A DNA stretch of 32,000 bases from Candidatus Saganbacteria bacterium (GCA_026387835.1 JAPLKZ010000005.1:249596-281595); one strand, 5' to 3'. Positions 1 to 24,250 are shown, numbered from the stretch's first letter. The notes: generated from the letters alone by a model not told the origin. Program-made: numbers and translations.

Positions 1-163
1 GGTACACACAGAGTGATCCTCCGACGCGTTCATTTTTAAAAATATAATGTACAAGAATCTCTTTTATATCTACGATATTAATATGATTGATATAATGTGA
101 TAATTAAGATAAAGGAACGGTATCGGCTTATTCATTCAAAATCGCCCATAAAAGGCTTAAAAA

Positions 164-1087
164 ATGGTTGATATCAAAAAGATCATTGTTGGTGCAGAAG
201 GACCCTGCAGCTCATGGATGCAGGGCTTTGACCCCAGTGACCGTAAAACCGGAAATACTATGTCTAAACTAATTAAAAAATATAATGACAAACACACGGA
301 CAGTAAGCTAGGGTTATCATTCACCAGAGACAATGCGACTGCCAGGTTCACGATCAGTAATTCGCGTTCAGTCACAAAAGGAACAATGAACGACTTGTTT
401 TCTTGCGAGGATTATTTTTTTTCATATCCAAAGATAGACGAAGAACGCGATCATAACGGAAACCTGCAAGGGTCCCTTGTTTTCAGCAACCCGAATAAAG
501 ATCAGAGAACCGGCAAGAGAATAATAAACGGGCAGGTCACTACAAAACTTATAGAGAGCTCTCCTGATTCGAAGACAGCCAAGGAAATTCCTGTAGGCGC
601 ATGTTTTCTGGCTGAGTATAATAAAGAAACTACCGCTCTCCAGACAAGGTTCCTAGAAACATGCATAGCAGTGACTTTTTACGAACCGGGTACAAAAACC
701 GGGGTCCTCGCGCATTTCGACAGCCAGGAAAAAGCCAAAGAACTAAAAAATGTGATTAATACCCTTAAAAATAAAGGGATCGATCTTTCAAAAGTACAGG
801 TCAGCATCATCGGAGGGGACGGGTCCGATCCATCTAACAGGACATTTATCGAGATCAGCAAGATCCTGGACGATGAAATGGTCCCGATCACCGAGACTAA
901 TATCGGGTTCCACGCCAGCCGGCCGTTCAATATAAATCTTGATCTGTCAAACGGGAAAATAACCAGCTATAAAGAAACGATCCAATATAAAAACGATCCA
1001 TCTTACAATGAGAATTTCTTTAAAAAATTCGGGGATTTCACCGAAAGGAACAATTTGGTGATAATCGATGAACTGCCTGACATTTAG
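164..1087 (+). CDS. Hypothetical protein with a C-terminal CheD-like (Cys/His deamidase fold) domain
   Basis: 307-aa ORF. The segment TCIAVTFYEPGTKTGVLAHFDS ... VQVSIIGGDG fits the CheD pattern: a Cys, a His 17 residues later, and a downstream GG motif. The N-terminal ~160 aa are unrecognised. The start is uncertain, with an alternative Met at 260. Confidence 0.5.
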   Translation: MVDIKKIIVGAEGPCSSWMQGFDPSDRKTGNTMSKLIKKYNDKHTDSKLGLSFTRDNATARFTISNSRSVTKGTMNDLFSCEDYFFSYPKIDEERDHNGNLQGSLVFSNPNKDQRTGKRIINGQVTTKLIESSPDSKTAKEIPVGACFLAEYNKETTALQTRFLETCIAVTFYEPGTKTGVLAHFDSQEKAKELKNVINTLKNKGIDLSKVQVSIIGGDGSDPSNRTFIEISKILDDEMVPITETNIGFHASRPFNINLDLSNGKITSYKETIQYKNDPSYNENFFKKFGDFTERNNLVIIDELPDI

Positions 1088-1164
1088 GCGCCTGGTCGTA
1101 CTATTAAATATATTTTGACAACCTGAACCCCTTCAATGCCTAAGTAAAACCCTCCAGAACAATA

Positions 1165-1193
1165 TTCACAACAGCTTCTTTGCAGTATATAAT
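1165..1193 (+). promoter_or_regulatory. Sigma70-like promoter upstream of tRNA-Ser(CGA)
   Basis: ttcaca (1165-1170), a 17-nt spacer, then tataat (1188-1193), about 55 nt before the tRNA. Confidence 0.4.
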
Positions 1194-1247
1194 GGTAAGC
1201 GGAGGAGTGGCCCCCGATAGGGAATCGGGGCAGGCGAGTGGTTTAAT

Positions 1248-1335
1248 GGAGGGATGGCCGAGTGGTTGATGGCGGCGGTCTCGAAAACCGTTTCCCGATC
1301 TAATCGGGACGCAGGTTCGAATCCTGCTCCCTCCG
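1248..1335 (+). tRNA. tRNA-Ser (anticodon CGA)
   Basis: Hand-folded cloverleaf. Acceptor GGAGGGA/TCCCTCC, anticodon loop CTCGAAA, long variable arm TTCCCGATCTAATCGGGAC, T-arm GCAGG-TTCGAAT-CCTGC, discriminator G. Confidence 0.9.
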
Positions 1336-1356
1336 ATTTTTTATGGGAGGTCATTT

Positions 1357-1839
1357 ATGAAAGTATTGGTAGCCTATTATTCGAGGGATGGTGCGACAAG
1401 GAAAGCGGCGGAAAGCATCGCGGGCATATTGAAATGCGATATCGAGGAGATAATCGACACCAGGAACAGGAAGGGCCTGTGGGGTTTCATGACCGGCGGT
1501 TTTGACGCGCAGTTCAAAAAACTGACAGTCATACAAGAGATGAAAAAAGATGCTTCGGCTTATGACCTGGTCGTGATCGGGACACCTATATGGTCTTCGA
1601 AAATGGTCCCGGCAATAAGGACGTATATCATCCAGAACGTAAAAAAAATGAAAAACATAGCAATATTCTGCTGCTTCGGAGGATACGGAGATAAAAAAAC
1701 TTTCAATGATATAGAAACACTGTGCGAGAAACGCGCGGCGTCAAAAGCATCGTTCAAGAGAAATGAAGTGAAGACCGGCGAGTTCATCCAGAAGGCAAAA
1801 GAATTTGCGGGCGAGATACAGAACAGGGAGGCGATCTAA
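1357..1839 (+). CDS. Flavodoxin-like fold protein
   Basis: 160-aa ORF. It has the N-terminal MKVLVAYYSRDGATRKAAE motif and DLVVIGTPIW, both typical of flavodoxin-family proteins. Confidence 0.75.
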   Translation: MKVLVAYYSRDGATRKAAESIAGILKCDIEEIIDTRNRKGLWGFMTGGFDAQFKKLTVIQEMKKDASAYDLVVIGTPIWSSKMVPAIRTYIIQNVKKMKNIAIFCCFGGYGDKKTFNDIETLCEKRAASKASFKRNEVKTGEFIQKAKEFAGEIQNREAI

Positions 1840-2010
1840 ATGAACAAGTTCACGATGATGAAGGCCGGCGGTCTTTTAACACTGGTATTGCTCGCATGCA
1901 CGGCAATTATAGGATATCTCCATCTTGGAATTAAGCTGCATGTGATCTTTGCTATGCTGACACTGGTAGCTGCTTTATCGCACGTGTTTATTGTTATAAA
2001 GAAGGCTTGA
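1840..2010 (+). CDS. Small hydrophobic protein (56 aa), possibly translationally coupled to the flavodoxin-like gene
   Basis: The ATG directly follows the upstream TAA (taaATG). The ORF reads MNKFTMMKAGGLLTLVLLACTAIIGYLHLGIKLHVIFAMLTLVAALSHVFIVIKKA, which gives two predicted TM helices. It is below the ORF-track length cutoff. Confidence 0.4.
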   Translation: MNKFTMMKAGGLLTLVLLACTAIIGYLHLGIKLHVIFAMLTLVAALSHVFIVIKKA

Positions 2011-2078
2011 GTTTGAGTGTGAGTTTTGAGTGTTGAGTTTTTTACTCAAGACTAATTACTCAAACTTAGTACTTAAAT

Positions 2079-2165
2079 GGAGGGGTGGCCGAGTGGTTGA
2101 AGGCGCTCGCCTGGAAAGCGTGTTTACGTGAAAGCGTAACGTGGGTTCGAATCCCACCTCCTCCG
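2079..2165 (+). tRNA. tRNA-Ser (anticodon GGA)
   Basis: Hand-folded. Acceptor GGAGGGG/CTCCTCC (one G:U pair), anticodon loop CTGGAAA, long variable arm, T-arm GTGGG-TTCGAAT-CCCAC. There is one T:T mismatch in the anticodon stem. Confidence 0.85.
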
Positions 2166-3602
2166 ATGATTGAGATATTGAGCGTTTTTAAAAAGCGGCC
2201 GCCAGCCGATCCTAGAATCAAATTGTAATTTTTTGCCTTTCAAAATAAAGTTCGAGCCGATATTTTTTAGGAATGTAAGGATTTCTTCATAATTATTTGT
2301 GGCGATAAGATTTTTGGCTTGGCATCCGGATAAAATAATCTCTTTCATCGGTTCGAGCCAATTATTTCCCTTTTGTTCAAAATCCTTTATCTTTTGTTGT
2401 ATGTCCAGCTTTTCGTTTAATAGGGCATTCTTTTTTACCTGATATGTTTCCGGGTCTATGCCTTCCCCCTCTATGAACAGATCAAGCAGTTTATCCATTT
2501 TTACTGCAATATCAGATTTCTTTTGTTGCAGATTTTGAACAAAAGATTTTGTTTCTGCTTGAGCAAGCTCTTTTTCGTTATTGAGGTCTATCAGCATTTT
2601 CTTCACCCAGTCATCAGGGATTATCGTTTTGCTGATAGCATCTTTCATCTGATCGATTATGGATTCCTGGCGCGTATATTTCTCATCACACTTTTGCTTT
2701 TTCTTAGTGCAGCGATAATAGATATGGCCTTTTTGCTTTTCGGCGGTTATCATACAACCACAATTGCCGCATCGCATCAGTCCAGAAAAAGCAAATTCAT
2801 GTTTTCGTTTGCGCTTTTTCTTGCCTCTATTGGCCATTACTTGTTGAGCTTGCTCATATAGAGATTTGGAAATAATTGGCTCGTGAGTTCCTTCGTGCAT
2901 TTCTCCGTTATATCGGAATACTCCATAATAAAAAGGACTTTTTAACATGTGCTGGACACGGGCAGGAACGAGGATATATCCACGATAGCTTTTCATCCCG
3001 GCTCTTTCAAGGAATTGCTTTATTGAAAGCAATGTATAGTCACCGGTTGCATACAGCTCAAATGCCTTTCGTATTAGCGGAGCTTTTTCAGTATCAACTT
3101 CAATTCCTTTTGTCTTGTAATTGTTTAGATACCCCAATGGAGCAAATGCAGGCCAAATACCGTTACGCACTTTCTGCCGATGTCCTCGTTTTACATTCTC
3201 GCTTAGATTATCTATGTAATACTTGCTTTGGCCAAAGGCGATATTTAACATGAATTTTCCTTGAGGTGTAGAATCAAACCAGAAGGTCGGGAACTTGAGA
3301 TCTTTCAGCCTGCCCGTGTCCAGCAAGTAAATAATTTTGCCTCCATCTATTGAATTGCGTGCTAATCTGTCCGGATGCCAAGCCAAAACGCCACAAGCTT
3401 CACCTTTTTCAATCCGATCAAGCATTTCATTGAATATTTCTCTGCCGGGTTCTTTGGCAGTTTTTGCCTCGCAGAGCGAGGCGACGATTTCAAGTTTTTC
3501 TTTGGCGGCAAATTCTTTTAGCTCAACCAATTGTGCCTCAATGGATAATATCTGTCTTTCTTCCGAATCAGTTGATTTCCGGGCATAAAGGAAATACTTC
3601 AT
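2124..3602 (-). CDS. Large serine recombinase (resolvase/invertase catalytic domain + recombinase domain + zinc ribbon + coiled coil)
   Basis: N-terminus MKYFLYARKSTDSEERQ carries the catalytic Ser motif. DRLARN follows, then RCGNCGCMITAEKQKGHIYYRC (zinc ribbon). The ATG at 3602 is preceded by aaaggaggaggg, so the TTG at 3620 in the ORF track is likely spurious. The last 13 codons are antisense to tRNA-Ser(GGA). Confidence 0.9.
   Translation of the reverse strand: MKYFLYARKSTDSEERQILSIEAQLVELKEFAAKEKLEIVASLCEAKTAKEPGREIFNEMLDRIEKGEACGVLAWHPDRLARNSIDGGKIIYLLDTGRLKDLKFPTFWFDSTPQGKFMLNIAFGQSKYYIDNLSENVKRGHRQKVRNGIWPAFAPLGYLNNYKTKGIEVDTEKAPLIRKAFELYATGDYTLLSIKQFLERAGMKSYRGYILVPARVQHMLKSPFYYGVFRYNGEMHEGTHEPIISKSLYEQAQQVMANRGKKKRKRKHEFAFSGLMRCGNCGCMITAEKQKGHIYYRCTKKKQKCDEKYTRQESIIDQMKDAISKTIIPDDWVKKMLIDLNNEKELAQAETKSFVQNLQQKKSDIAVKMDKLLDLFIEGEGIDPETYQVKKNALLNEKLDIQQKIKDFEQKGNNWLEPMKEIILSGCQAKNLIATNNYEEILTFLKNIGSNFILKGKKLQFDSRIGWRPLFKNAQYLNHRRRWDSNPRYAFT
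2163..2239. repeat. IR-A left copy (imperfect inverted repeat flanking the recombinase gene)
   Basis: It is the reverse complement of 3693-3762. Identical blocks are ccgatgattgagat (14), gtttttaaaaagcggccgccagccgatcc (29), aaattg (6) and aattttttgcctt (13). The left copy has a 7-nt variable patch and a 7-nt indel. Confidence 0.85.
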
Positions 3603-3759
3603 AATCCCTCCTCCTTTCAATATAGATATCGGTCAAAAAGCCCGCTTTTGGCCAGCTTCATTTGGAGTATTTATTGCTCCAAATGGAGCTGTAAGGCAAA
3701 AAATTCCAATTTGGATCGGCTGGCGGCCGCTTTTTAAAAACGGCGGAAATCTCAATCAT
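2166..3759 (-). mobile_element. Putative minimal integrative element carrying only the serine recombinase, inserted at the 3' end of tRNA-Ser(GGA)
   Basis: Terminal inverted arms abut the tRNA discriminator base. Joining the inner arms gives the palindrome atctcaatc-AT-gattgagat. Joining the outer arms gives the quasi-palindrome ctccg-AT-cggga. Confidence 0.5.
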
Positions 3760-3762
3760 CGG
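3693..3762. repeat. IR-A right copy
   Basis: It is the reverse complement of 2163-2239 (see the left copy). It includes an inverted copy of the recombinase 3'-end sequence. Confidence 0.85.
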
Positions 3763-3870
3763 GAACTATATAAAAATATCAGAACCGAGATGACCGCCGA
3801 TCCTTAGGGCGGCGGTTGCCGCCGTCCAACCGCCGCCCCGTTCCCGCTGCTGGGCGACCTTTTCGGATTG
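3759..3870. repeat. IR-B left copy (112-bp inverted repeat)
   Basis: It is the reverse complement of 8433-8544, with 2 mismatches by manual alignment. It is GC-rich and contains an 11-bp-stem hairpin. Confidence 0.9.
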
Positions 3871-3936
3871 AAAAACTGCCAAAGAACCCAAAAATATCGG
3901 CTCAAACTTTATTTTGGCCAAAAGCGGGCTTTTTGA
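3871..3936 (+). pseudogene. Mosaic remnant of a second serine-recombinase locus
   Basis: 3871-3889 is identical to the reverse complement of 3447-3465 (codons KTAKEP). 3890-3916 matches the reverse complement of 2241-2267 at 26/27 (codons KNIGSNFIL). 3916-3936 is identical to the reverse complement of 3633-3653, the region upstream of the recombinase gene. Confidence 0.7.
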
Positions 3937-4014
3937 ATTCCGGATTGTCCCCGACCACCCACCCCTGAATAAATTGATAAATAACGCAATTATTGTTAGT
4001 ATTATATTGAAAGG

Positions 4015-4035
4015 TAGCATATCAATAATATGCTA
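4015..4035. promoter_or_regulatory. Palindromic candidate operator upstream of the HTH gene
   Basis: tagcatat-caata-atatgcta has perfect 8-bp arms and lies 17 nt before the HTH ATG. A possible promoter is ttgata (3975-3980), 17 nt, then tagtat. Confidence 0.4.
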
Positions 4036-4051
4036 TCAATTAAATGATATA

Positions 4052-4258
4052 ATGTCAATAAATAATAATATAGGAAAGAATATCAAACGTTTACGCACAA
4101 AATTAGGCTTCTCGCAAGAGACCTTGGCTGTAAAATCAGATGTAAAATACACGACTCTTACTAAGATTGAGAGTAATGTTATAAAGAAACCCTCAGTATT
4201 GCTAATGGCAAAAATCGCAAATATATTAAATGTTCAAATTGAGGAGCTAATAAAATAA
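4052..4258 (+). CDS. XRE-family helix-turn-helix protein (68 aa; C-protein/controller-like)
   Basis: IGKNIKRLRTKLGFSQETLAVKSDVKYTTLTKIESN is a canonical HTH_3 motif. I chose the internal Met of ORF 3914..4258, because the upstream part of that ORF lies in the recombinase-remnant sequence. Confidence 0.8.
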   Translation: MSINNNIGKNIKRLRTKLGFSQETLAVKSDVKYTTLTKIESNVIKKPSVLLMAKIANILNVQIEELIK

Positions 4259-4262
4259 CCAT

Positions 4263-4958
4263 ATGAAATATGAATTGGAAATTTATAATAGAAATGTGCC
4301 TGATGAGCATCTTCTTGATGATTTAAAAGCAGTTGCTAAGAAATTAGGCAGGTCTTCTGTGACTCATGAGGAATATAATAAAAATGGGAAGTATAATAGT
4401 ACAACTTATATGCGAAGATTTGGTGGTTGGTTTAAATCGTTAGAAATGGCAGGGCTCCAAAAAACAAGAACGCCAGCTAATGTTTCCGAAGATGACTTGT
4501 TTAACAATATTGAAGAGATTTGGATAAAACTCGGCAGACAACCACGATATCAAGAAGTTAGAACCCCATTATCAAAATATTGTGCAGGAACATACGAAAA
4601 CAGATTTGGAACATGGCGGAAGGCACTAGAAGCTTTCATAGATTATATTAATAAGGATCAAGATAAATGTTCAAATGAAATATCTCAAAAAGAGATAAAA
4701 TCCGGAGAGACTTCTAAATCTAATAAACACATAAAGATGACAAAAAGAGAAATATCGGATAGATTGCGTTTCCGGATATTATTAAGAGATGGTTTTACGT
4801 GCAGAAAATGTGGCCGCAGTCCGCTGAAGAATCCAGGAATCGAATTGCATGTTGATCATATCCTTCCTTGGTCCAAAGGTGGCGAGACAACGATTGAGAA
4901 TCTCGAGACGAAATGCGAAAAATGCAATCTGGGTAAAGGGAATGCATTTGATGTTTGA
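4263..4958 (+). CDS. HNH endonuclease with two N-terminal homing-endonuclease-associated repeats
   Basis: C-terminus HVDHILPWSKGGETTIENLETKCEKCNLGKGN is an HNH motif. Two repeats of the type L..LGR.....EY........STY.RRFG.W..AL occupy the N-terminal half. The start is 4 nt after the HTH stop. Confidence 0.85.
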   Translation: MKYELEIYNRNVPDEHLLDDLKAVAKKLGRSSVTHEEYNKNGKYNSTTYMRRFGGWFKSLEMAGLQKTRTPANVSEDDLFNNIEEIWIKLGRQPRYQEVRTPLSKYCAGTYENRFGTWRKALEAFIDYINKDQDKCSNEISQKEIKSGETSKSNKHIKMTKREISDRLRFRILLRDGFTCRKCGRSPLKNPGIELHVDHILPWSKGGETTIENLETKCEKCNLGKGNAFDV

Positions 4959-5012
4959 TTCTTATATAGAAATGGGTAATGTCTTAGAGCAGTTAATAAG
5001 GATTGTAATAAC

Positions 5013-5924
5013 ATGGCAAATATAACATGCAAAGCGAATAATCTAAGCGGGAAAAGATGCAAAAGGAATCCTCTGAAATCTGGGTTTTGTCCAACTCATG
5101 ACCCGGAAATATTAAATAAAAAAGAAGAACAGAAGAAGGCTGATGAAAAAAAGCGACAAAAAATAGATGAATTATTATCTATTGTCACAAAAACATGTAA
5201 GGCAAATGGTTGGGGCTGGGAAGTTGATGCATTTGATGATAATGATTTTTCTTCAGCCATTGTTAATGTTCATAAATATGTTTCAGGTCAAGACATTTCA
5301 GCATTGTTTCACATTAATATATCAAAAGACAATATTCAGTATAGGATTGAGAAAACATCATTTTACGGATACGGCGTTGAGGCATTAATGAGTTCAATAT
5401 CAAGTGCATTTGAAAGAAAAGGATTTGTTAGTCCAAAATCACTAGGAGGTGAACCAAATAAAAAGAATTCCTTATTAGATGTTTTGCCGATAATATTTGA
5501 ACGATTTCATGTTGTGGCAACGCAGCTGTCAAATCGTTATAATAAGAGACCTACATTGACAATTTCTGATGAATATGACGTACAGGATCTTTTACATGCT
5601 CTCCTTCGAGTTCATTTTACCGATGTTAGGCCAGAGGAGTATACTCCCAGTTATGCGGGATCATCTTCAAGAATAGATTTCCTTCTCAAAGATGAGAAGA
5701 CGCTTCTTGAGGTTAAATATGCAACAACTTCCTTAAAGGACAAAGCGATTGGAGAACAGTTAATAATAGATGTTGAGAAGTATAAAAGACACACCGATTG
5801 TGAAAACTTGTTTTGTTTCATATATAATCCAGGTTTTTCTATTAAGAATCCAAGCGGGCTAGAAAAAGATTTGTCAGGAAAAAATGGTAATATTAATGTT
5901 AAAGTATTCGTTTACCCAAAATAA
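5013..5924 (+). CDS. Predicted PD-(D/E)xK-like nuclease with an N-terminal Cys/His knuckle
   Basis: DEYDVQDLLHALL...RPEEYTPSYAGSSSRIDFLLKDEKTLLEVKY shows a D...E-x-K arrangement. The N-terminus is CKANNLSGKRCKRNPLKSGFCPTH. The family assignment is from memory of similar proteins and has not been searched. Confidence 0.5.
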   Translation: MANITCKANNLSGKRCKRNPLKSGFCPTHDPEILNKKEEQKKADEKKRQKIDELLSIVTKTCKANGWGWEVDAFDDNDFSSAIVNVHKYVSGQDISALFHINISKDNIQYRIEKTSFYGYGVEALMSSISSAFERKGFVSPKSLGGEPNKKNSLLDVLPIIFERFHVVATQLSNRYNKRPTLTISDEYDVQDLLHALLRVHFTDVRPEEYTPSYAGSSSRIDFLLKDEKTLLEVKYATTSLKDKAIGEQLIIDVEKYKRHTDCENLFCFIYNPGFSIKNPSGLEKDLSGKNGNINVKVFVYPK

Positions 5925-5932
5925 AATAGAAA

Positions 5933-5989
5933 CTAAAAGAATTTGCCGCCAAAGCTCTTGGCGTTTCAATAGAGGAGTTAATGAAATAG
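5933..5989 (+). repeat. Cassette-junction direct repeat C1 (recombinase-gene segment + HTH 3' tail remnant)
   Basis: 5933-5954 is identical to the reverse complement of 3500-3521. In frame it reads KLKEFAAKALGVSIEELMK followed by a stop, 1 nt before the ATG at 5991. Confidence 0.8.
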
Positions 5990-5990
5990 C

Positions 5991-6821
5991 ATGAAAAATA
6001 AAACACTCGCAATTTTCGGTATAGGAACGTATATCTTATCTGTCTTGTTGTCTGCTACAGATTCGGGAGGCAATTCTGTTGCGCCAATTACATTAATCTC
6101 AATATCGGGAATAGCAACCGCGGTATTTATCATTATGGCGATAGTCCGCCTCTGGAAGGAAGAAAAAGGCGCATCAATAACACTTGCATCTTCGGCTATT
6201 ATTCTTTTTATATTGTCAGTAGTTCAGGGTTTTGCCTCACCTTCGTACGGAAGTCCACTCATCATTATGTTAAACATAACCAAAGTATTTTATTTCATCG
6301 CATTTATTTGGACGATAATAGTACTTTATAGAAGTAAAGTAATTAATTCGCACATGATTACCAAAATAGATAATTATCACTTAAACCAACCCGTAAATGA
6401 AGCGCCGGATTTGAAGGAATACACAGCCGAAGAATATCAAATGTTTGAGATGGCTGGATATAAAAGGATATCTGAAAATGAAAAAATCTTTAGAGGCGGA
6501 ATTGTTAAATTCGCTTATATTCCGTGGGGCGAAACAACTATCGGAACTATAGATAATAAAATCTACAAAATATCGTTACAATTAATCACCCAAAACGAGA
6601 TCTTAGCAAAAGAAGTGTTTAAAACCACCCTCAATTACTTAATAGAACAAATGGACAAATATAGTGAACATCCATTTCTATCTAATAAATATATTTGGGA
6701 TGCACCTGAGGGGAATATCATTTATGAGCAAATAAATAGATTTAATCAGCATTGCATAAACATTTTTATTACTTCAAGCTCTATAAGAGATCAAGTGAAG
6801 AATTATATTTCAAAACACTAG
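5991..6821 (+). CDS. Hypothetical membrane protein (N-terminal multi-TM region + soluble C-terminal domain)
   Basis: 276-aa ORF. The first ~115 aa contain about 4 hydrophobic helices. No motif was recognised. Confidence 0.55.
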   Translation: MKNKTLAIFGIGTYILSVLLSATDSGGNSVAPITLISISGIATAVFIIMAIVRLWKEEKGASITLASSAIILFILSVVQGFASPSYGSPLIIMLNITKVFYFIAFIWTIIVLYRSKVINSHMITKIDNYHLNQPVNEAPDLKEYTAEEYQMFEMAGYKRISENEKIFRGGIVKFAYIPWGETTIGTIDNKIYKISLQLITQNEILAKEVFKTTLNYLIEQMDKYSEHPFLSNKYIWDAPEGNIIYEQINRFNQHCINIFITSSSIRDQVKNYISKH

Positions 6822-6832
6822 GGGGAAAATAT

Positions 6833-7360
6833 ATGATTATTAAAGTTATTGTTGAAATCATTTTAGGATTTATTTTGTTGGGAGTTAGTTCTGCTTTTTG
6901 GAATTGTGTTAAATCTCCGAAATTCTTAGCGAATGTGCTGGGTGATTATGACGAATTAAAAAGGTTTTTCCATCATCTAGGGAAAGAAAATATTAAACAC
7001 GAAAGTGAAGTTGTTGATCCGAAAATTGGATTTTCGGCAAATATCGTTTTATGGATTAAAGCGAGCCTATCGGCGCTGGACAAAACACGCAACATGTTGC
7101 TGGTTGTAATAATAGGAATCTTTATCGGAAGTTATTTTCTAGGAAATATTTTCCTCTTAATCAATGCTGTTTTATTCTTTATAATGGCTTTCCCAAGCAT
7201 TTCTGCTGCTGCTAAAAATAATATAATTACTGATATTCATACGATAATGCTTAATGTCTACAAATGGAACAAAGTAAATCATGCTGAATGTGAGAGGTTT
7301 TGTAACTTAGAGCAGCCAAGGATTATGAAAAATATTTATAGAGTAGTAACTGAAGAATAA
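6833..7360 (+). CDS. Hypothetical membrane protein
   Basis: I chose the internal ATG at 6833, which is preceded by ggggga. The track start at 6752 overlaps the previous gene. Hydrophobic helices occur at the N-terminus and mid-protein. Confidence 0.5.
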   Translation: MIIKVIVEIILGFILLGVSSAFWNCVKSPKFLANVLGDYDELKRFFHHLGKENIKHESEVVDPKIGFSANIVLWIKASLSALDKTRNMLLVVIIGIFIGSYFLGNIFLLINAVLFFIMAFPSISAAAKNNIITDIHTIMLNVYKWNKVNHAECERFCNLEQPRIMKNIYRVVTEE

Positions 7361-7413
7361 AAGGATTTGCCGCCAAAGCGTAGGGCGTTTCAATTGGAGA
7401 TTTAATAAAATAA
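7359..7413 (+). repeat. Cassette-junction direct repeat C2 (degenerate copy of C1)
   Basis: 44/55 identical to 5935-5989 by hand alignment. It reads KGFAAKA(stop)GVSIGDLIK(stop) and ends 4 nt before the ATG at 7418. Confidence 0.75.
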
Positions 7414-7417
7414 ATTT

Positions 7418-8401
7418 ATGTCATTATTTAAGAAAAAATTAACCGAGCAAGAAGCCGCCTCTCATTTTGTCCTTTATATTACAAAAGAGGCACAAAGTGC
7501 ATGGCCTGCCATTTATAAAAGTCTTCAAGATTCTTTTAAAGATAAATTTGTTGTAGAAGACGAAACAATGGCAGCATTTGATTTGGCTCTTGCCGCAATC
7601 GCCCAAGATTTACAGGCGGTAAATAATTTATTTCCAAAAGACCAAGCAGAAAGAATTGAAAAATGGGTTTTAAAATGCATTAATACTGAAGATTGGGGCG
7701 AATATGCGGTTGGCGAAGTGAAAAAATATGGGGAAAGATTTCAAAAGGATATTCAAAATATCAATGCCGGTGGCGATCCTTTGAGCGCCATCCCAACTCG
7801 CTTACTCCAGCAATGGCTAGGAAAAAATATTCAAGGCTTTGATGTAGAAATGAACGGAAAGAAAACCGGAATTATAAGCCCCTTTCTTCTTATGATGGTT
7901 TCCAGTATGCTTGCCGCCTTTCTTGGAACTTGGAAAAAACTAAAGGATGATTTTAATCTTGTTGAGGGCGACATACCTTTTGATGAAAAACCAAGTGGCT
8001 TGAAAGATTATGTACCCGAGCCGGATGAAAAAAAGCCTAACGGAACTATTCAATATTATGATGAAAACGGGAACCTAAAAGAGAAATGGTTGCCACCGGA
8101 ACAAATAAATGAACTTTTAAAGAAAGACGGCGCAAAGCGACTTTATAAAGTACTCGTTAAGGGACATTGGGACGGTGTTAAGGAAGCCCTTTGGGAACTT
8201 TCTGATGATACTGCTCAAAAATATGTTGATGAAAATGGTTATGCTTATGCAATTTGCACTTACGACACAGGAGAATTAAAATATTACTTTATTTCAAGAA
8301 GATTATGGGAGAAACAAGAGCAAATGGGAAAAATCTTGATGGATCAAAATTTATCACCGGAACAACAGCAAGAAGCAGTTAGAAAATTAATGGATGACTA
8401 A
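7418..8401 (+). CDS. Hypothetical protein (one central hydrophobic helix)
   Basis: 327-aa ORF with AT-rich codon usage like its neighbours. No motif was recognised. Confidence 0.5.
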   Translation: MSLFKKKLTEQEAASHFVLYITKEAQSAWPAIYKSLQDSFKDKFVVEDETMAAFDLALAAIAQDLQAVNNLFPKDQAERIEKWVLKCINTEDWGEYAVGEVKKYGERFQKDIQNINAGGDPLSAIPTRLLQQWLGKNIQGFDVEMNGKKTGIISPFLLMMVSSMLAAFLGTWKKLKDDFNLVEGDIPFDEKPSGLKDYVPEPDEKKPNGTIQYYDENGNLKEKWLPPEQINELLKKDGAKRLYKVLVKGHWDGVKEALWELSDDTAQKYVDENGYAYAICTYDTGELKYYFISRRLWEKQEQMGKILMDQNLSPEQQQEAVRKLMDD

Positions 8402-8432
8402 AATTTCCGCCAAAGAAAAACTTGAAATCGTC
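8402..8432 (+). repeat. Junction repeat C3 / recombinase 5' fragment abutting IR-B
   Basis: 8407-8432 is identical (26 bp) to the reverse complement of 3483-3508 (codons AKEKLEIV). Confidence 0.8.
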
Positions 8433-8544
8433 CAATCCGAAAAGGTCGCCCAGCAGCGGGAACGGGGCGGCGGTTGGATGGCGGCAACCGCCGCCCTAAG
8501 GATCGGCGGTCAGCTCGGTTCTGATATTTTTATATAGTTCCCGA
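8433..8544. repeat. IR-B right copy (112-bp inverted repeat)
   Basis: It is the reverse complement of 3759-3870 with 2 mismatches. The hairpin ggcggcggttg-gatggcgg-caaccgccgcc lies at 8466-8495. Confidence 0.9.
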
Positions 8545-8545
8545 A

Positions 8546-9694
8546 TTATTTCTTCCGCAGCACCCACATCATCTCTTTCACTCTTATATTCCTGTTCCTA
8601 AGGTTCCTTGACCCTCGGTAAGTATTATATTCGCTTGACATAAGCTTCCATTTTCCGTGTTTGGACAGGATGGACTTGAAAGTCTTAACGGGGATTATCC
8701 CTTCATCATTGTAAGAGATAACGATGAATTTAGCTCTGGTGTTTTTCAGAAGTTGGTCCATTGCCTCTTCGGCAAGATGCCTTTTGTTATAAACGGACTT
8801 GTTCCAATCCCGCGTGATCCCGCTGACGCCGTCCTGGATATAAAAGTTTTTATAGTCATTTATAAGGTTCAGCATGAAATAGTTTGACCCGTAAGGATGC
8901 TGGTTATAGGGCGGGTCAAGATAGACAAGATCGAACTCCGGAAGATTTGTGTCTTTAACAAGCCGATTAATATCTTTTTTTAGTACAACGACCTTACACT
9001 CGATATCAGAGAATACCGGCACTTCAAGGGTTATTTCCTTTTTTATCCTTGAGAGGGCATTCTCGCCTTTGCCTCCGAAATGGCCGATGCCGTTCTTCTT
9101 GTGGAACCCTTTGAAGACGCCGGAAGTGTTCGTGTGTATAGATGCTTCCACCAGAAGCGATGCAAGACAGAAGACGCGGTATTTTTCGGGAACGTCTTTG
9201 TCGATGAGTTTCCTAATATTATCGATGACCTGAGCGTTCTTGCTCGTATAAAAAACCCGCTCTCCGGATTTAATATCCATATCATCCTTTGGCGAATAAT
9301 TGAGGCTGATGAAACCTGGCTTATTTATGGATAATTTACGATCATTTAGAATGTCTATGTAATATTCAAGCTTTTTAACATTTATCTCTGATCTGTTTGC
9401 AAGATAACATCTGTTTAGCGTAAAACTGTAATTCTCAAGGTCATTGGCATACAGGACCTTTGCGTAATATTTCAAAAGCCTCGAAACTGAGCCGCTTCCC
9501 GCGAAACCGTCAAGGATAACAAGTTTTTCTTTGTTAAGTATTTTCTTAACTTTAGCAAACCCCTTATTAAGAAAGGAAAGGAGCGACCTTTTATTGCCGA
9601 GATAAGTTATCAGCTGAGAAGAAAAATATGGGGCATCTAAGTCAAGGTATTCCGGGGCATTGCCGGAAAATAAAGATCGTTGTATGTGTGCCAT
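8546..9694 (-). CDS. N6-adenine DNA methyltransferase, D12 (Dam-like, alpha) class
   Basis: YLGNKR is followed by the FAGSGS AdoMet motif, with DPPY (VYLDPPYN) about 200 aa downstream. This motif order is typical of alpha-class adenine methyltransferases. Confidence 0.8.
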   Translation of the reverse strand: MAHIQRSLFSGNAPEYLDLDAPYFSSQLITYLGNKRSLLSFLNKGFAKVKKILNKEKLVILDGFAGSGSVSRLLKYYAKVLYANDLENYSFTLNRCYLANRSEINVKKLEYYIDILNDRKLSINKPGFISLNYSPKDDMDIKSGERVFYTSKNAQVIDNIRKLIDKDVPEKYRVFCLASLLVEASIHTNTSGVFKGFHKKNGIGHFGGKGENALSRIKKEITLEVPVFSDIECKVVVLKKDINRLVKDTNLPEFDLVYLDPPYNQHPYGSNYFMLNLINDYKNFYIQDGVSGITRDWNKSVYNKRHLAEEAMDQLLKNTRAKFIVISYNDEGIIPVKTFKSILSKHGKWKLMSSEYNTYRGSRNLRNRNIRVKEMMWVLRKK

Positions 9695-9783
9695 TAACTA
9701 TGGGGTAATTTTAACATATAAATCTTTAACTGAAAAATACTTGCCATTTTTCCGATATATGTTATTATAATGCCAAATAATCA

Positions 9784-10269
9784 ATGAGAAAGATCTCCAA
9801 AACAAAAGCAATTGCATTTGTAATTTTGTGTTATCTGCTGGCTTTGCCGGCATTATCTGTCCCTGTATTTTTAGACGCCGGATTGAACGCGGGGAACTCC
9901 TCAGACGGCTCTATATCCGGCAAGAAGAATGCATGGTCCAGCAAATCGGGAAAAGATATGGTGTTCTGGATAAAGGTCCAGCCCGGATCCGATCTTGAAG
10001 AAGGTGAAATCAGATATCAGTTCATGCTTGACATGACGGCTCCCGATAAAGAAATGGTTCTTTCAGAAGGCCCTTATAATTTCGATAACGGCGGGGAAGG
10101 CAGGATATTCAAGAATACCTGGTATTTTGCGAACGCCAGGACGATCAATTTTCCGACGCCCGAAGTGTACGGTACCTGGGAGGTCGGCTTCAGTCTGCGG
10201 AACAAAAACACCGGAGAAGTGATAAAGGCAAAGACATTCAACTTCGAGTTCATCGACTCGACAAAGTAA
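9784..10269 (+). CDS. Secreted hypothetical protein (paralog of the next gene)
   Basis: It has a signal-peptide-like N-terminus. It shares MVFWIKVQP / EGPYNFD..G...IFKNTWYF.NA / GTWEVGF motifs with 10289..11056. A possible promoter is ttgcca-17-attata upstream. Confidence 0.6.
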   Translation: MRKISKTKAIAFVILCYLLALPALSVPVFLDAGLNAGNSSDGSISGKKNAWSSKSGKDMVFWIKVQPGSDLEEGEIRYQFMLDMTAPDKEMVLSEGPYNFDNGGEGRIFKNTWYFANARTINFPTPEVYGTWEVGFSLRNKNTGEVIKAKTFNFEFIDSTK

Positions 10270-10288
10270 AAGAAAAGGAGAAAAAGGA

Positions 10289-11056
10289 ATGAAGAAGACA
10301 GTGCTTGCGGCGGCGGTACTTATTATGACGGCGGCATGTGTTTTTGCCGCGCCGGAGTTGAAGGACCTGGGGGTGAGCGCGGGGAGTTTTACGGAGAACA
10401 AAGTACTGGAAACGAAGACAGTGTGGATGTCCCAGCCTGAACAGTGGATGGTGTTCTGGGGCAAGATCGAGCCGAAATCGGATTATGACGGTGATTCCCC
10501 GAGATATTACGGCAAGATAGAGTTCATTTCTCCGGACAACACGCTCAAGATGACGGAAGGGCCGATCGCTTTTGACCCTGACGGGACCGCAAAAATATTT
10601 AAGACAACATCATATTTTATAAATGCAAAAACGCCTGAGGTGCCGAAGCCTTTTGTATTCGGAAGGTGGACAGCGAATTTCTACATGTTTGACGAGAGGA
10701 ATTCAGAGACGGTCCTTGCAAAGACCGCAAATTTCGAACTGATGGAGATGAGGCCAGTAGCCCCGGCAGTCACTACGCCGGAAGCCGTTTCACCGAAGCC
10801 CAGCACTACGGTCGTACCAGTTACACCTGGCATAATGGCGACAGTAGAACCGTCGGCTGTAGGGACCTTTCCGACGCCTGAGGTGAAGTCTGGAGCGGAC
10901 AAGGCAAATGAAGAAGAAGTAAAAAAGTTAAAAGCCGAGCTTGACGAAATAAAAAAGCTGCTCGAAAAAAAGAACGAAAGACCGGCAAGAAAAGCAAGGC
11001 CAAAGCCGGCGCAAAAAAAAGCCCCTGTAATACAAAAGACAAAAAGCACGATCTGA
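10289..11056 (+). CDS. Secreted hypothetical protein with a Pro/Thr-rich linker and a Lys-rich coiled-coil tail
   Basis: Signal peptide MKKTVLAAAVLIMTAACVFAAP. The domain is homologous to the upstream gene. The C-terminus is EEVKKLKAELDEIKKLLEKKNERPARKARPKPAQKK. Confidence 0.6.
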   Translation: MKKTVLAAAVLIMTAACVFAAPELKDLGVSAGSFTENKVLETKTVWMSQPEQWMVFWGKIEPKSDYDGDSPRYYGKIEFISPDNTLKMTEGPIAFDPDGTAKIFKTTSYFINAKTPEVPKPFVFGRWTANFYMFDERNSETVLAKTANFELMEMRPVAPAVTTPEAVSPKPSTTVVPVTPGIMATVEPSAVGTFPTPEVKSGADKANEEEVKKLKAELDEIKKLLEKKNERPARKARPKPAQKKAPVIQKTKSTI

Positions 11057-11113
11057 ATAAAACCGCCGTCTTTAATTGCACGCCAAACGATTTTTTGTTA
11101 GCATAAGATTGAT

Positions 11114-12583
11114 ATGCAGATAAACCTCGCCGGATACAATATCGATGCTGAAGTTCTGGAAGAGCTGAAAAAAGGGCCCGTCCAAAGGCAGGATGTCACG
11201 CCCGAGACGATCTCGGCCGCTTACGCGAGGATCAGCCGCGATCCGAGGCCGATCGACGAACTGCGCAAAGCCGCAAGGCAGGAGGTTGAAAAGGCCAGGA
11301 AGTCGAACAGCAGCATCATATTCAAAATGGGACATCACTCTGTGGCCGAGCACGCCGTATTCAATTTTGATCTGATCGCCATATCGCGCCTCGCCGTGGA
11401 ACACCTGGAGCATTTCAGGCTCTGTTCCTTCACGGAAAAATCCCAGAGATATATAACCCTTGAAGATGATTTTGTGGTCCCGGAAGAAATAAAAGGTTCA
11501 AAAGCTGAAGGGATCTTTGTTTCAACGATAAAGGAACAGAACAGGCTGTACCACCGGCTGAACGAAAAATTGCAGGCCTATGTCCTGAAGAAACACGCTG
11601 TCCTGGCAAAGGACCCGAAGAACGGAGTCCTTCTTGAAGGCTGGGCCAAAGAGGACGCGAGGTACGTGACAGCTCTTGCGACACAGGCGCAGCTGGGCCT
11701 CACGGTGAACGCCAGGAACCTTGAGCTCATGTTCAGGCGTTTCGCGTCGCAGCCCCTCTCAGAGATAAAAGAAATATCGAAAAAGATGTACGGGCTTGCG
11801 GCAAAGATAGCGCCTTCCATTATCTTATTTACGGAAGCGAATGAATTTGACGCAAAAACTTACCAGGAAATTAAATCCAAAATAAATTCAAAAATCAAAA
11901 TTCATCATTCAAAACAACCTGAAGTCAGGTTGATCGATCATACGAAAGATGCCGATGATGTTTTGGTGGCGAGCCTGATGTTCGCAGTGAGCGGAGAGGA
12001 TTTTGAAAGCTGCGAAAAGAAGGTCAAAAAAATGTCCTTGGCAGAAAAAGAGCTTATTGTTAAAACCTCCGGCAAATACATGCAGTTCTATGATACGGTA
12101 CTCCGCGAGTTCGAGAACATCGATGTGACATTTGAAGTAATGCTGTCATCATCCTGTTTTGCGCAGCTTAAACGGCACAGGATGGCGACGATAATAACAC
12201 AGCCGTATGATATCTCTCTCGGTGTGACAGTGCCGCCGTCGATAGACGAAATCGGCATGAAAAAAGCCTTTATGGAGATCATTGCAAGAACGGAAAAAGC
12301 TTATGAGATCGTCATGAAGACAAACTCTGCCGCAGCTCCTTACGTATTGACGAATGCTCACAGGAGAAGGGTCCTGTTCAAATGCAATGCCAGGGAACTG
12401 TATCATCTGTCCAGGCTTCGGGAGGACAGCCACGCGCAGTGGGACATCTGCAATATCTCAAGGATAATGAGCGAAGAAACTAAAAAGGTCATGCCTTTTG
12501 CGATGATGTTCATCGGGGGGAAGGACGGATATCCCGGGATCTATAAAAAGATATTTGGTGAATATCCGAAGGTGATGGGGTGA
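11114..12583 (+). CDS. thyX: Flavin-dependent thymidylate synthase, fused two-domain form
   Basis: The first half has HHSVAEHAVFNF...FTEKSQRY (ThyX core with an S.RY motif). The second half has LKRHRMATIITQ (RHR motif). At 489 aa it is about twice a single ThyX domain. Confidence 0.75.
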   Translation: MQINLAGYNIDAEVLEELKKGPVQRQDVTPETISAAYARISRDPRPIDELRKAARQEVEKARKSNSSIIFKMGHHSVAEHAVFNFDLIAISRLAVEHLEHFRLCSFTEKSQRYITLEDDFVVPEEIKGSKAEGIFVSTIKEQNRLYHRLNEKLQAYVLKKHAVLAKDPKNGVLLEGWAKEDARYVTALATQAQLGLTVNARNLELMFRRFASQPLSEIKEISKKMYGLAAKIAPSIILFTEANEFDAKTYQEIKSKINSKIKIHHSKQPEVRLIDHTKDADDVLVASLMFAVSGEDFESCEKKVKKMSLAEKELIVKTSGKYMQFYDTVLREFENIDVTFEVMLSSSCFAQLKRHRMATIITQPYDISLGVTVPPSIDEIGMKKAFMEIIARTEKAYEIVMKTNSAAAPYVLTNAHRRRVLFKCNARELYHLSRLREDSHAQWDICNISRIMSEETKKVMPFAMMFIGGKDGYPGIYKKIFGEYPKVMG

Positions 12584-21943: not shown

Positions 21944-22801
21944 ATGAAAAAACTGATCGCATTAATACTGGCGGCATCTTTAATAGCAAACTTTACTGTA
22001 GCTTCTGTTTCAGCAGCGAAGAAAAAAGCCCCGAGAAAGCCGGGGAAGAGGATCGTCAGGACCGTGAAGAATAAAAAGGCCGTGAAGAATAAAAAACCCG
22101 CGAAGAAGACAAAAGCTGCAAAGAAGACGAAAGCCGCAAAGAAGACAAAAGCCGCAAAGAAGACAAAGGTCACGAAGAAAGCAAAAGCCGCGAAGAAAAA
22201 GATAACAGCAAAAGCTGCGAAGATAAAGAAAGCCGCAAAGAAGCCGGCTTTAAAGCCGACACTAAAAAAAGCTCCGGCAACACCGTGGGTGCCGCCGTTA
22301 CCTGAAAAAGTAACTCCTGCCCGGGTATCAACTGCAGCGGCAATTCCGGTTGTCCCGTCACCATGGGGCTTGACCATAGGGGCTAACTTTGGCGTGTCCG
22401 CGGGTCTTACGGCTGCATCGGCAGTGTTAGATTATCCGCTCACAAGATTTATCCGGGGTGCGAAGGTGAGGTTAGGCGGAGATTATCTCACGGGAGCCAG
22501 CGGAAAGGATACCGACCTGAAGATAGCCACGCTGAAATTAGGCGGCATTTACGCGCTCGATATGCTCAAAATGCAGGACGTGCCGGTCGACTGGTACATC
22601 GGGGGCGGGATAATCGTGCCTCTGAAGGTCAGCGGCGGAAGGACCGGTTCATACGGCCTTGAAGCTTATATCGGCGCTAACATCGCGGTATTTGATATTG
22701 GCGCCTTTAATGCGCAGTTTGGATACTCTGCAATAAAATATGGCGGTGCTAGTGCAGCAAAAGGCGGCATAGCGACGATCGGATACGCGTACACGTTCTG
22801 A
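21944..22801 (+). CDS. Outer-membrane beta-barrel-like protein with a polylysine (AAKKTK-repeat) N-terminal region
   Basis: It has a signal peptide and then a ~100-aa Lys/Ala-rich tract. The Gly/aromatic-rich C-terminal domain with alternating pattern ends in YAYTF, an OMP-type terminal Phe. Confidence 0.6.
   Translation: MKKLIALILAASLIANFTVASVSAAKKKAPRKPGKRIVRTVKNKKAVKNKKPAKKTKAAKKTKAAKKTKAAKKTKVTKKAKAAKKKITAKAAKIKKAAKKPALKPTLKKAPATPWVPPLPEKVTPARVSTAAAIPVVPSPWGLTIGANFGVSAGLTAASAVLDYPLTRFIRGAKVRLGGDYLTGASGKDTDLKIATLKLGGIYALDMLKMQDVPVDWYIGGGIIVPLKVSGGRTGSYGLEAYIGANIAVFDIGAFNAQFGYSAIKYGGASAAKGGIATIGYAYTF
22100..22171 (+). repeat. 4 x 18-bp in-frame tandem repeat (AKKTKA units)
   Basis: The units are gcgaagaagacaaaagct, gcaaagaagacgaaagcc, gcaaagaagacaaaagcc and gcaaagaagacaaaggtc. 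Confidence 0.85.
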
Positions 22802-22815
22802 CCGGTTAAAATAAA

Positions 22816-22875
22816 CCCCCCTGTCACTTCGTGACATCCCTGCCTGCCGGCAGGCAGGTCTCCTTGTCAGGGGAG
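22816..22875. other. Compound palindromic element directly after the OMP gene stop
   Basis: Outer cccctg/cagggg arms enclose the hairpin gtcac-ttc-gtgac (22823-22835) and the perfect 20-bp palindrome cctgcctgccggcaggcagg (22839-22858). No T-run follows. Confidence 0.6.
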
Positions 22876-22995
22876 AACTAAAATTTGGATTTCTATTTTC
22901 CCTGCCCAAGATCAAAATCGAGTGAAATTTATAAAAAATACCATCGATACTCTTTCAGCCGATGACGATCCGGATATTAAAGGGAGAAAATAAAA

Positions 22996-24249
22996 ATGCA
23001 GACAACTAGGACTTCTTTTGCAGCAGCGTTAAGGACGAGCAGCAGGATCGATGTCGCCGCCAGGATAACTTCGGCAAGACTTTATTCACCTAATGGTGAT
23101 TATTGGAGATCCCGTGCCAGTATTCCGGGAGCTGTCCGTGCATTAAATGAAAAAATAATAGATAAGAAAATGGTCGCGGCTATATTTGCTGATGACAAAA
23201 TGCCCGTTGCCAGGGCTGCGGATATATTAGCTAGAGTAGAAATGGCTGCGGGAATTTTGGCTGATGTCAAAATGTCTATTAGCAGGGCTGCGGGTATATT
23301 AACTGATGACAAAATGCCTTTAGAGAAAGCTGCGGGTATATTAACTGATGACAAAATGCCTTTAGAGAAAGCTGCGGGTATATTAGCTGATGACGGTATA
23401 TTAACTGATGACAAAATGCCTTTAGAGAAAGCTGCGGGTATATTAGCTGATGACAAAATAGATTTAATGAAAGTTGCGGCTATATTTGCTGATGACAAAA
23501 TGCCCGTTGCCAGGGCTGCAGGAATATTTGCTGATGGCAAAATGCCTGTTGCCAGGGTTGCGGGAATATTAGCTTATCTCAAAATACCTGCAAGCAGGGC
23601 TGCGGGTATATTAGCTGATGACAAAATGCCTGCTAGCAGGGCTGCGGGAATATTAGCGCATGATCTTATTAATCCTTGGAGGGCTGCGGGTATATTAACT
23701 GATGACAAAATGCCTGTTGCCAGGGTTGCAGGAATATTAGCTGATTACAAAATGCCTGTTGCCAGGGCTGCGGATATATTAGCTGATGACAAAATATCTT
23801 TAGAGAAGGCTGCGGGTATATTAGCTGATGATAAAATGAGTCTTTGCAGGGCTGCGGATATATTAGCTGATTACAAAATGCCTGTTGCCAGGGCTGCGGA
23901 TATATTAGCTGATGACAAAATATCTTTAGAGAAGGCTGCGGGTATATTAGCGCATGATCTTATTAATCTTTGGAAGGCTGCGGGGATATTGGCTGACGGG
24001 AAAATGCCTTTAGATAGGGCCGTGAGAATATTAGCATGTGATCTTATTAATGTTCAGAAAGCTGCGGGTATATTAGGTGGCGGCATAATGCCTATTACCA
24101 GGGCCGCGGATATATTAGCCGATGAAAAAATCTCTTTAGATAAGGTTGCAGGCATAATCGGGGAAATGCCGGACGTAAACGCAATTTACATCTTAGCTGA
24201 AATGGGAGACGAACTCGTAAGACGAATTATTGAGAAGATAGGAAAATAA
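22996..24249 (+). CDS. 14-residue tandem-repeat protein A (about 25 repeats; MgtE_N/FliG-like helical C-terminus)
   Basis: Consensus unit AAGILADDKMPxxR, encoded by 42-bp DNA repeats. RBS agggag. The N-terminal ~50 aa and the C-terminal ~35 aa are homologous to the next gene. Confidence 0.7.
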   Translation: MQTTRTSFAAALRTSSRIDVAARITSARLYSPNGDYWRSRASIPGAVRALNEKIIDKKMVAAIFADDKMPVARAADILARVEMAAGILADVKMSISRAAGILTDDKMPLEKAAGILTDDKMPLEKAAGILADDGILTDDKMPLEKAAGILADDKIDLMKVAAIFADDKMPVARAAGIFADGKMPVARVAGILAYLKIPASRAAGILADDKMPASRAAGILAHDLINPWRAAGILTDDKMPVARVAGILADYKMPVARAADILADDKISLEKAAGILADDKMSLCRAADILADYKMPVARAADILADDKISLEKAAGILAHDLINLWKAAGILADGKMPLDRAVRILACDLINVQKAAGILGGGIMPITRAADILADEKISLDKVAGIIGEMPDVNAIYILAEMGDELVRRIIEKIGK

Positions 24250-24250
24250 A

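Follow-up and report, generated by a model that had tools for sequence, protein, structure and literature searches.

Why should an island built around one recombinase gene carry, at the inner edges of a pair of long inverted repeats, short reverse-complementary copies of pieces of a recombinase locus? The island lies in the window analysed here, the whole stretch of 32,000 nucleotides of DNA from Candidatus Saganbacteria. The initial annotation took the copies for scraps of a second, related recombinase gene, brought in on a circle that was opened within that gene, joined to the repeat arms and then mostly deleted. The question matters beyond this locus: large serine recombinases, important both for engineering genomes and for driving the transfer of islands, are generally taken to require no more than two short double-stranded sites.

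The island and its complementary boxes

The island, a large-serine-recombinase element that has integrated at a tRNA-Ser gene's 3′ end, is made of two units: a recombinase unit between the arms of the inverted repeat IRa, and a unit consisting of an HTH gene plus cargo between the arms of the inverted repeat IRb (Table 1). IRa, an 80-nt repeat flanking the recombinase gene, was absent from the initial annotation; its inner arm touches IRb, and a core TCGG is common to the outer end of IRb and IRa′. Because CCGA is shared by all three junctions (tRNA..CCGA/IRa, IRa′/TCGG/IRb and IRb′..CCGA/flank), the middle junction is read as repeating, in inverted form, the joint expected between the outer ends after excision. 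The core is CCGA here and CCGCCA in most relatives, with a symmetric CG in both. The GC content is 30-41% in the island (30-38% in the cargo) versus about 48% outside. In most loci checked, the outer IRa end adjoins the 3′ end of a tRNA-Ser gene of any anticodon, and rarely that of a tRNA gene for Arg, Trp or Tyr; the outer part of IRb in relatives resembles a tRNA 3′ end. The window has two tRNA-Ser genes, CGA (1247-1336) and GGA (2078-2166), on the same strand and 830 nt apart. Only the second holds an island; the CGA copy is island-free, yet relatives use tRNA-Ser genes of any anticodon.

Table 1. Coordinates of the island's features and predicted junctions in the window.
Feature	Coordinates	Strand	Basis and remarks
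tRNA-Ser(GGA), insertion target	2078..2166	+	ARAGORN, Rfam; 3′ end ..CCTCCGA adjoins IRa
Large serine recombinase gene	2124..3602	-	ATG at 3602; Pfam Resolvase, Recombinase and Zn_ribbon_recom
IRa, outer arm by the tRNA	2163..2242	.	inverted-repeat search, BLAST; inner half encodes C-terminal tail KGKKLQFDSRIGWR
S2′ box, last conserved codons KNIGSNFIL	2241..2267	-	partner of 3890-3916
Nested internal helices in coding sequence	2312..3388	-	2312-2337/3363-3388, 2950-2966/3309-3325, 2354-2369/2868-2883, 2370-2384/2531-2545
S3′ box, codons KTAKEP	3447..3465	-	partner of 3871-3889; cognate-specific matching
pal hairpin	3466..3482	.	7-bp stem, 3-nt loop; exactly between S4′ and S3′
S4′ box, codons LKEFAAKEKLEIV	3483..3521	-	partner of 8401-8432, 5933-5954 and 7358-7378
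S1′ box	3633..3654	-	5′ of ribosome-binding site; partner of 3915-3936
pal2 hairpin	3655..3689	.	between IRa′ and S1′; BLAST pairing 3653-3667/3677-3691
IRa′, inner arm upstream of recombinase	3690..3762	.	inverted-repeat search
IRb, proximal arm	3759..3870	.	inverted-repeat search (112 nt, 98%); GC-rich, internal hairpins
S3 box copy	3871..3889	+	inverted repeat; adjoins IRb, no gap
S2 box copy	3890..3916	+	inverted repeat; relatives' geometry
S1 box copy	3915..3936	+	inverted repeat; relatives' geometry
Divergent promoter-like region, S block to HTH gene	3974..4058	.	consensus matches only; recombinase-direction site 4058->4030
12-mer identical to recombinase ribosome-binding-site region	4003..4014	+	not part of the box system
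XRE-type HTH gene	4058..4258	+	Pfam HTH_3; beside S1 in main-clade relatives examined
Variable cargo	4263..8401	+	HNH nuclease 4263-4958; DpnII/MboI-type restriction enzyme 5013-5924
Cassette border	5933..5988	+	first 22 nt of S4 joined to 3′ end of an HTH gene (LKEFAAK/ALGVSIEELMK, stop)
Cargo genes, product unknown	5991-6821, 6752-7360, 7418-8401	+	
Second cassette border, like 5933..5988	7358..7412	+	inverted and direct repeat search
S4 box copy	8401..8432	+	inverted repeat; adjoins IRb′, no gap
IRb′, distal arm	8433..8544	.	inverted-repeat search; outer end ..GTTCCCGA, then host-side flank
Predicted excised joint of the island			..TATATAGTTCCCGA / TGATTGAGAT
Predicted empty site after island loss			..CCTCCTCCGA / ATTATTTCTTCC
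Predicted cargo-flip junction			..CCTTTTCGGATTG / GACGATTTCAAGTTTTTC
Predicted box-to-box inversion junction			e.g. IRb-S3, then GGCAGAGAAATATTC

The recombinase has the expected domains (PF00239, 2e-19; PF07508, 6e-17; PF13408, 1e-9), its translation contains a visible YARKST motif, and it is 100% identical to a protein of a Candidatus Saganbacteria metagenome-assembled genome. At least 7,968 homologs at E<=0.001 were found among the 8,000 scored, with identities of 55-75%. It falls below the curated NCBIfam cut-offs of the XisF (100.6 versus 375 bits), CcrB (82.9 versus 900) and IS607 (24.3 versus 110) models, as well as those for CcrA and CcrC; its best matches, all weak, are XisF, CcrA/B and the A118 integrase, the last being its nearest solved relative. 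The recombinase frame has no stop inside the element: it runs through IRa and ends within the tRNA in antisense (2124-2240). The lengths of homologs (480-595 aa) are in line with a frame that reads out through IRa, and the IRa-encoded tail KGKKFQF..GKIGWR is conserved. In a Kiritimatiellia metagenome-assembled genome (L060:261-5075), a 3.4-kb insertion splits the recombinase gene at codon 72, with both parts on the same strand. Consensus matching placed promoter-like sites in the recombinase direction upstream of the box block and found none between IRa′ and the recombinase start.

Four of the five matches reported initially proved to be far beyond chance (BLAST E of 1e-8 to 2e-4). The copies of S3 (19/19) and S2 (26/27) stand as described; the match to the region upstream of the recombinase start, given as 3916-3936, was borne out as S1 (22/22); and that at 8407-8432 (26/26 with 3483-3508) extends to 8401-8432 versus 3483-3514 (30/32) and is called S4. 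The pieces do lie at the exact inner edges of the 112-nt repeats, the HTH gene does stand behind upstream sequence of the recombinase type (S1), and the palindrome gcctcgc-N3-gcgaggc, here named pal, is the sole separator of the two gene segments copied at those edges. The fifth match, the 12-mer tatattgaaagg likened to the region near the ribosome-binding site, is present, at 4003-4014 rather than 4004-4015, but its significance did not hold up: it is at chance level because it has only 12 nt and an E of 2.7 and relatives do not conserve it. The initial annotation had also missed that recombinase codons LKEFAAK are copied twice more, at 5933-5954 (22/22) and 7358-7378 (20/21). The island contains 18 exact inverted matches of at least 13 nt versus 1.3 in composition-matched shuffles, and nearly all involve the recombinase locus. 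All long matches (at least 19 nt) to that locus are inverted, and none lies outside the island; the sole exact direct match is a 14-mer (3491-3504 versus 9520-9533), near chance.

Some resemblances and candidate functions of the box sequences were considered. S2′ (ATCGGCTCGAACTT) resembles a T-arm-like stretch of IRb (ATCGGTTCGAATTT), for example at L007:9835-9872, and the joined S2 and S1 read like a shortened tRNA 3′ end (GGCTCGAA..N10..GCCA), so that they may mimic the target half-site of the recombinase. Inspection by eye of the box boundaries revealed no shared sequence that would mark recombinase cutting sites. The frame from S3 through S2 and S1 into the HTH gene is open in the window, but it is frameshifted or stops early in most relatives, and a latent fusion protein was rejected; the box block has no conserved reading frame, and protein coding is excluded. 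Likewise, a fused recombinase-HTH protein (P0038) is not a designed domain fusion; it arises by read-through past the last conserved codons in a rearranged locus.

The cargo unit is variable. The block common to different hosts stops at the stop codon of the HTH gene, and the 2.09 kb from there to the end of IRa are 94-99% identical among unrelated hosts while the cargo differs. Both cassette borders in the window join S4 to the 3′ end of an HTH gene at a shared CGCCAAAG. The HNH nuclease, directly behind the HTH gene, has two homing-endonuclease-associated repeats, and it sits in an island that resembles filled and empty sites. The only methylase is a Dam-like enzyme of the D12 class (8546-9694), encoded just outside IRb′ on the opposite strand to the restriction enzyme, with its stop codon 1 nt from the IRb′ junction. 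Low GC content persists to about 9750, past IRb′; an older, larger island enclosing the methylase was considered and rejected, as no second tRNA-end remnant is found at its boundary.

Conservation, covariation and geometry

Relatives of the recombinase occur in at least 534 species-representative genomes, with hosts that include Patescibacteria, Nitrospira, Thermodesulfovibrio, Omnitrophota, Kiritimatiellia and Gammaproteobacteria, and in one cultured isolate with the island, Schleiferia thermophila DSM 21410. The family is almost absent from viral contigs, where there is one distant match, and a phage origin of the island was rejected on this ground. Of the 37 main-clade loci for which 350 nt or more of upstream sequence were available, 33, from many phyla, have the same box order adjoining the same repeats: flank, IRb′, S4, cargo, HTH, S1 S2 S3, IRb, IRa′, S1′, recombinase, IRa, tRNA. 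Every main-clade locus whose flank is long enough has the IRb pair, and the IRa arms of relatives are 73-111 nt long and 98-100% complementary. A distant clade (about 52% identity) has both repeat pairs and lacks the boxes and pal; therefore, the boxes arose once and have been kept since.

That the window, which comes from a metagenome-assembled genome, was misassembled around inverted repeats that can confuse assemblers (breaks and an N gap do occur at such repeats) is scarcely credible when more than 30 independent assemblies, including that of the S. thermophila isolate, have the same structure. The related possibility raised in the initial annotation, a common dispersed repeat with no connection to recombinases, deserves as little credence, there being no copy outside the island in the 32-kb window.

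Each box tracks the sequence variants of its own recombinase gene. Perfect matches of S3 were found in 17 of 34 cognate pairs of box and gene versus 0 of 175 non-cognate pairs, and those of S2 in 14 of 34 versus 3 of 181; arms and boxes are 98-100% complementary within a locus and differ between loci. Identity at synonymous codons is 0.8-0.93 at S4′, S3′, S2′ and the helix arms described below versus about 0.6 elsewhere, reaching its highest value in the gene at S4′ (0.87-0.93), with 0.82-0.88 at S2′. It is well supported by these comparisons that the boxes have been kept by selection since their origin and that their complementarity is what selection acts on.

The same observations bear on the explanation given initially. 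It accounts for the order of the pieces, which indeed matches a recombinase locus that has been cut at the 17-bp palindrome and circularly permuted, and the distant clade with repeats and no boxes agrees with a single origin. However, the architecture recurs in 33 of 37 relatives whose recombinases are only 55-75% identical, the matching is specific to the cognate gene, and the targets are under synonymous constraint. The boxes match the resident gene and follow its variants rather than those of a related gene decaying in this genome, and no relative carries an intact second recombinase at the box position. Neutral debris would not outlast nucleotide divergence of about 33%. As a recent event in this genome, the proposed insertion and decay are refuted, and recent neutral debris is a very improbable account of the boxes; a single ancestral event of the same kind, in the ancestor of this clade, is a possible origin for them.

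The coding sequence of the recombinase has structure of its own. It holds four exact inverted repeats of 15-19 nt, absent from the initial annotation, and eight nested helices with compensatory changes and suppressed synonymous variation. In 40 sequences and over 124 pairs, the helices and pal are 77.7% paired versus 34-48% when the partners are slid; changes on both sides of a pair occupy 204 cells versus about 110 with slid partners and 91±8 in shuffles, and none of 500 shuffles reaches the observed value. In pal, five of the seven pairs have changes on both sides, the stem variants being GCCTCGC/GCGAGGC, GCTTCGC/GCGAAGC, GCTTCCT/AGGAAGC and GCCTCCT/AGGAGGC, and these compensating changes alter amino acids. 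In relatives, pal2 is a hairpin of 13-20 nt with different compensating stems. Mismatches in the long arms and boxes have no wobble bias. The internal helices have 1.5-fold more wobble pairs when read on the recombinase antisense strand (330 versus 223), an excess that is weak as an indication of RNA structure; that strand is the one that a read-through transcript from tRNA-Ser would copy. An assignment of the acting strand from wobble pairs was rejected as weak, given 1.5-fold in helices and none in arms or boxes. In a search of positions 1-12000 with Rfam, two tRNAs were the only models to reach threshold, and no known RNA family was found.

The pairings converge on two points. At the first junction, 3870 pairs with 8433, 3871 with 3465, 3466 with 3482, and 3483 with 8432, so that four helices meet with no unpaired base. 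At the second junction, IRa:IRa′, S2′:S2, S1:S1′ and pal2 meet with 0-2 bases of slack; one sub-clade, lacking pal2, forms a three-way junction instead. In 24 loci, each joint has a gap of 0±2 nt, and between S3 and IRb the gap is 0 in most. The joined S2 and S1 in the cargo unit spell the joined ends of the recombinase unit, and S4′, the hairpin and S3′ in the gene spell the joined ends of the cargo unit. S1 pairs with positions -52 to -31 of the recombinase gene and S3 with codons 47-52; in the distant clade, the ribosome-binding site and start codon are covered by helices. Because the four box pairings and IRa cross one another, they do not make one simple nested fold. By this geometry the boxes appear to tie the recombinase and cargo units together with precision, an architecture of which no description was found in the literature searched.

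Natural rearrangements and the state in which the boxes would act

Relatives contain rearrangements whose breakpoints lie exactly at S2, S3 and S4. Locus L015 has its cargo unit in the opposite orientation to that of L019, a near-identical relative. Four loci (L024, L040, L058 and L044) read cargo-S4-pal-S3-recombinase body, with codons 1-28 lost. In L024 both outer junctions are kept, therefore a flip was followed by deletion between direct copies of S4; a simple inversion at S4 was rejected for loci of this type, in which the flank adjoins IRb′ directly, as deletions leave it. Four more loci (L001-L004) read tRNA-IRa-S1′-rec-S2′-S1-HTH, an order that results when the recombinase unit flips and the stretch between S2 copies is then deleted. 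In metagenomes, the junction predicted to join IRb, S3 and the recombinase body turned up once.

Downstream of its simplified element, L001 carries a second tRNA-Ser gene (GCT) along with a recombinase that is shorter (260 aa) and has S2-like and S3-like sequences of its own (L001:10887-12563), which suggests tandem residents at one target. Ten assemblies (L005, L008, L009, L011-L014, L016, L034 and L053) break or have an N gap exactly in IRb or at S3′ or S2′, as is expected if populations hold more than one arrangement. Short contigs of 1.4-1.6 kb were considered as free circles of the recombinase unit and rejected; they have no terminal repeats and are fragments ending at boxes. L016, considered as a form without the internal repeat, has a scaffold gap.

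The rearrangements lend some plausibility to a view in which the boxes serve programmed DNA rearrangement, as stretches of double-stranded homology or as secondary sites for recombination. A crossover joining a box to its inverted partner would turn round the 5′ end of the recombinase gene, the whole gene or the internal att copy as an on/off switch; one joining direct copies would leave the island fixed or reshaped, with cargo cassettes stacked. The exact coincidence of natural breakpoints with repeats and boxes, the metagenomic junction, the cassette borders of the window at the S4 motif and the frequent breaking of contigs at these points all fit, as do perfect Watson-Crick identity with no wobble, the presence in S4′ of CCGCCA, the junction core of most relatives, and a sequence GCCAAA(A)G common to S1′, S3′ and S4′. 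Against this, every product seen is a dead end or simplified, no reversible inverted state is proven, the boxes, at 19-28 bp, barely reach the usual homology limit or fall short of it, and the eight nested helices and the compensated pal and pal2 are left unexplained. Deletions between direct repeats harm the element, so selection should purge the boxes unless they are otherwise useful. Programmed rearrangement, the main rival, is put at well under even odds.

The reading preferred here, with a probability of roughly one half, is that boxes S1-S4 are a functional pairing network acting in a single-stranded state, RNA or ssDNA, that probability being split about evenly between the two molecules. 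A single-stranded state is favoured because of the nested helices, the compensated hairpins, the exact geometry, the helices covering the ribosome-binding site and the promoter-like sites. We infer the state, the molecule and the outcome along the following lines. The network would act when one strand of the element is unpaired, either as a long transcript (for example, read-through from tRNA-Ser or the recombinase leader) or as ssDNA during transfer or replication. Once folded, it would keep the two units' ends side by side and mask the 5′ region of the recombinase gene, and it would thereby govern expression of the recombinase or how the ends of the element rejoin. Against this reading, the box pairings cross one another and mismatches in the arms and boxes lack a wobble bias. 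The placement of S4 at a distance of 1-10 kb across translated cargo is awkward for RNA. Repeat arms of 85-314 nt with 98-100% identity also fit homogenisation at the DNA level, and the rearranged relatives show that the boxes also appear to act as double-stranded recombination points. We know of no serine recombinase that uses folded single strands.

A stronger version, that the life cycle of the island depends on an element-wide single-strand fold, is unlikely. In such a fold the internal copy of the end-joint would pair with both ends and rebuild a duplex attachment site, the host flanks would be left as flaps at the crossover point, and, through the four boxes and two hairpins, the loops of the recombinase and cargo units would become fixed in a pair of four-way junctions. 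If true, it would be the first structure-guided step (ssDNA or long RNA) known for a serine recombinase and could explain how a two-gene element without transfer genes spreads across phyla. At a more general level, the family keeps a costly self-complementary network even in streamlined Patescibacteria, and the part inside the recombinase coding region overrides amino-acid conservation. This points to an unrecognised control or mechanism, which may be silencing of expression in the integrated state, rearrangement of the units or single-strand end joining. The cultured host S. thermophila DSM 21410 offers a testable model, and such islands, along with their cargo (here a restriction enzyme), can be sought by box order and junction geometry, which make a clear marker.

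Comparison with known systems

The recombinase has the same three-domain build as the enzymes of other large-serine-recombinase elements (the A118, SPbeta and phiC31 phage integrases, CcrAB of SCCmec, XisF of Anabaena and TnpX of Tn4451), and like those elements the island has cargo and a single specific target at the 3′ end of a gene. Unlike them, it keeps an intact inverted copy of its own end-joint inside, its repeat arms are 80-300 nt versus about 50 bp for the usual att sites, its recombinase frame has no stop inside the element, and its boxes are complementary to its own gene.

Integron attC sites and CTX phage attP(+) likewise have inverted copies of the attachment region that could pair within one strand, and the island resembles them in that pairing, which is near perfect, is kept while the sequence varies. 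Those systems use tyrosine recombinases (IntI and XerCD), and their arms are tens of bases apart; in contrast, the island recombinase is of the serine type, its arms are 1.4-10 kb apart, and its single-stranded stage is hypothetical.

If the island were excised as a circle, it would hold two long inverted repeats and two unique parts like the yeast 2-micron plasmid with its FLP/FRT system; in both, one unique part encodes the recombinase, and relatives of the island have either part flipped (L015 and L001). The recombinase class differs, however, one repeat copy doubles as a chromosomal attachment site, and the circle is only hypothetical.

Fold-back inhibition and RNA-OUT of IS10 and the sib control of lambda int share with the island an upstream complement to the 5′ region of the recombinase gene. 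In the island, as in those systems, the complement would be in transcripts starting outside the gene, and the partners depend on the arrangement. Unlike those of IS10 and lambda sib, the complementary pieces of the island are encoded apart from their targets and therefore must co-evolve; they are also four in number, with one kilobases away, and no wobble tolerance was seen. IRb was considered as an intrinsic terminator for a small antisense RNA, a candidate weakened by conservation of the hairpin and not of the U-tract. The island has the defining features of none of these systems, whether attC and CTX attP, 2-micron, or fold-back and antisense control.

As in Hin/Gin, shufflons and intragenic invertons, inverted repeats bracket a segment found in both orientations among relatives. 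The island enzyme is a large serine recombinase and not a small invertase like Hin and Gin, and the crossing repeat pairs involve the coding sequence of the recombinase itself. Across the flip point, the relatives compared share no conserved promoter or coding fusion.

Other repeats were observed elsewhere in the window. Two adjacent genes at 22996-25588 (417 and 445 aa) consist almost wholly of repeats of a motif of about 13 residues (..KMPVARAAGILAD..), and positions 22001-24000 contain 96 exact direct repeats of at least 13 nt. The protein encoded at 21944-22801 combines a long repeat rich in lysine and alanine (KKTKAAKKTKAAKK..) with a beta-rich C-terminal part behind it, and the repeat causes a long open frame on the opposite strand.
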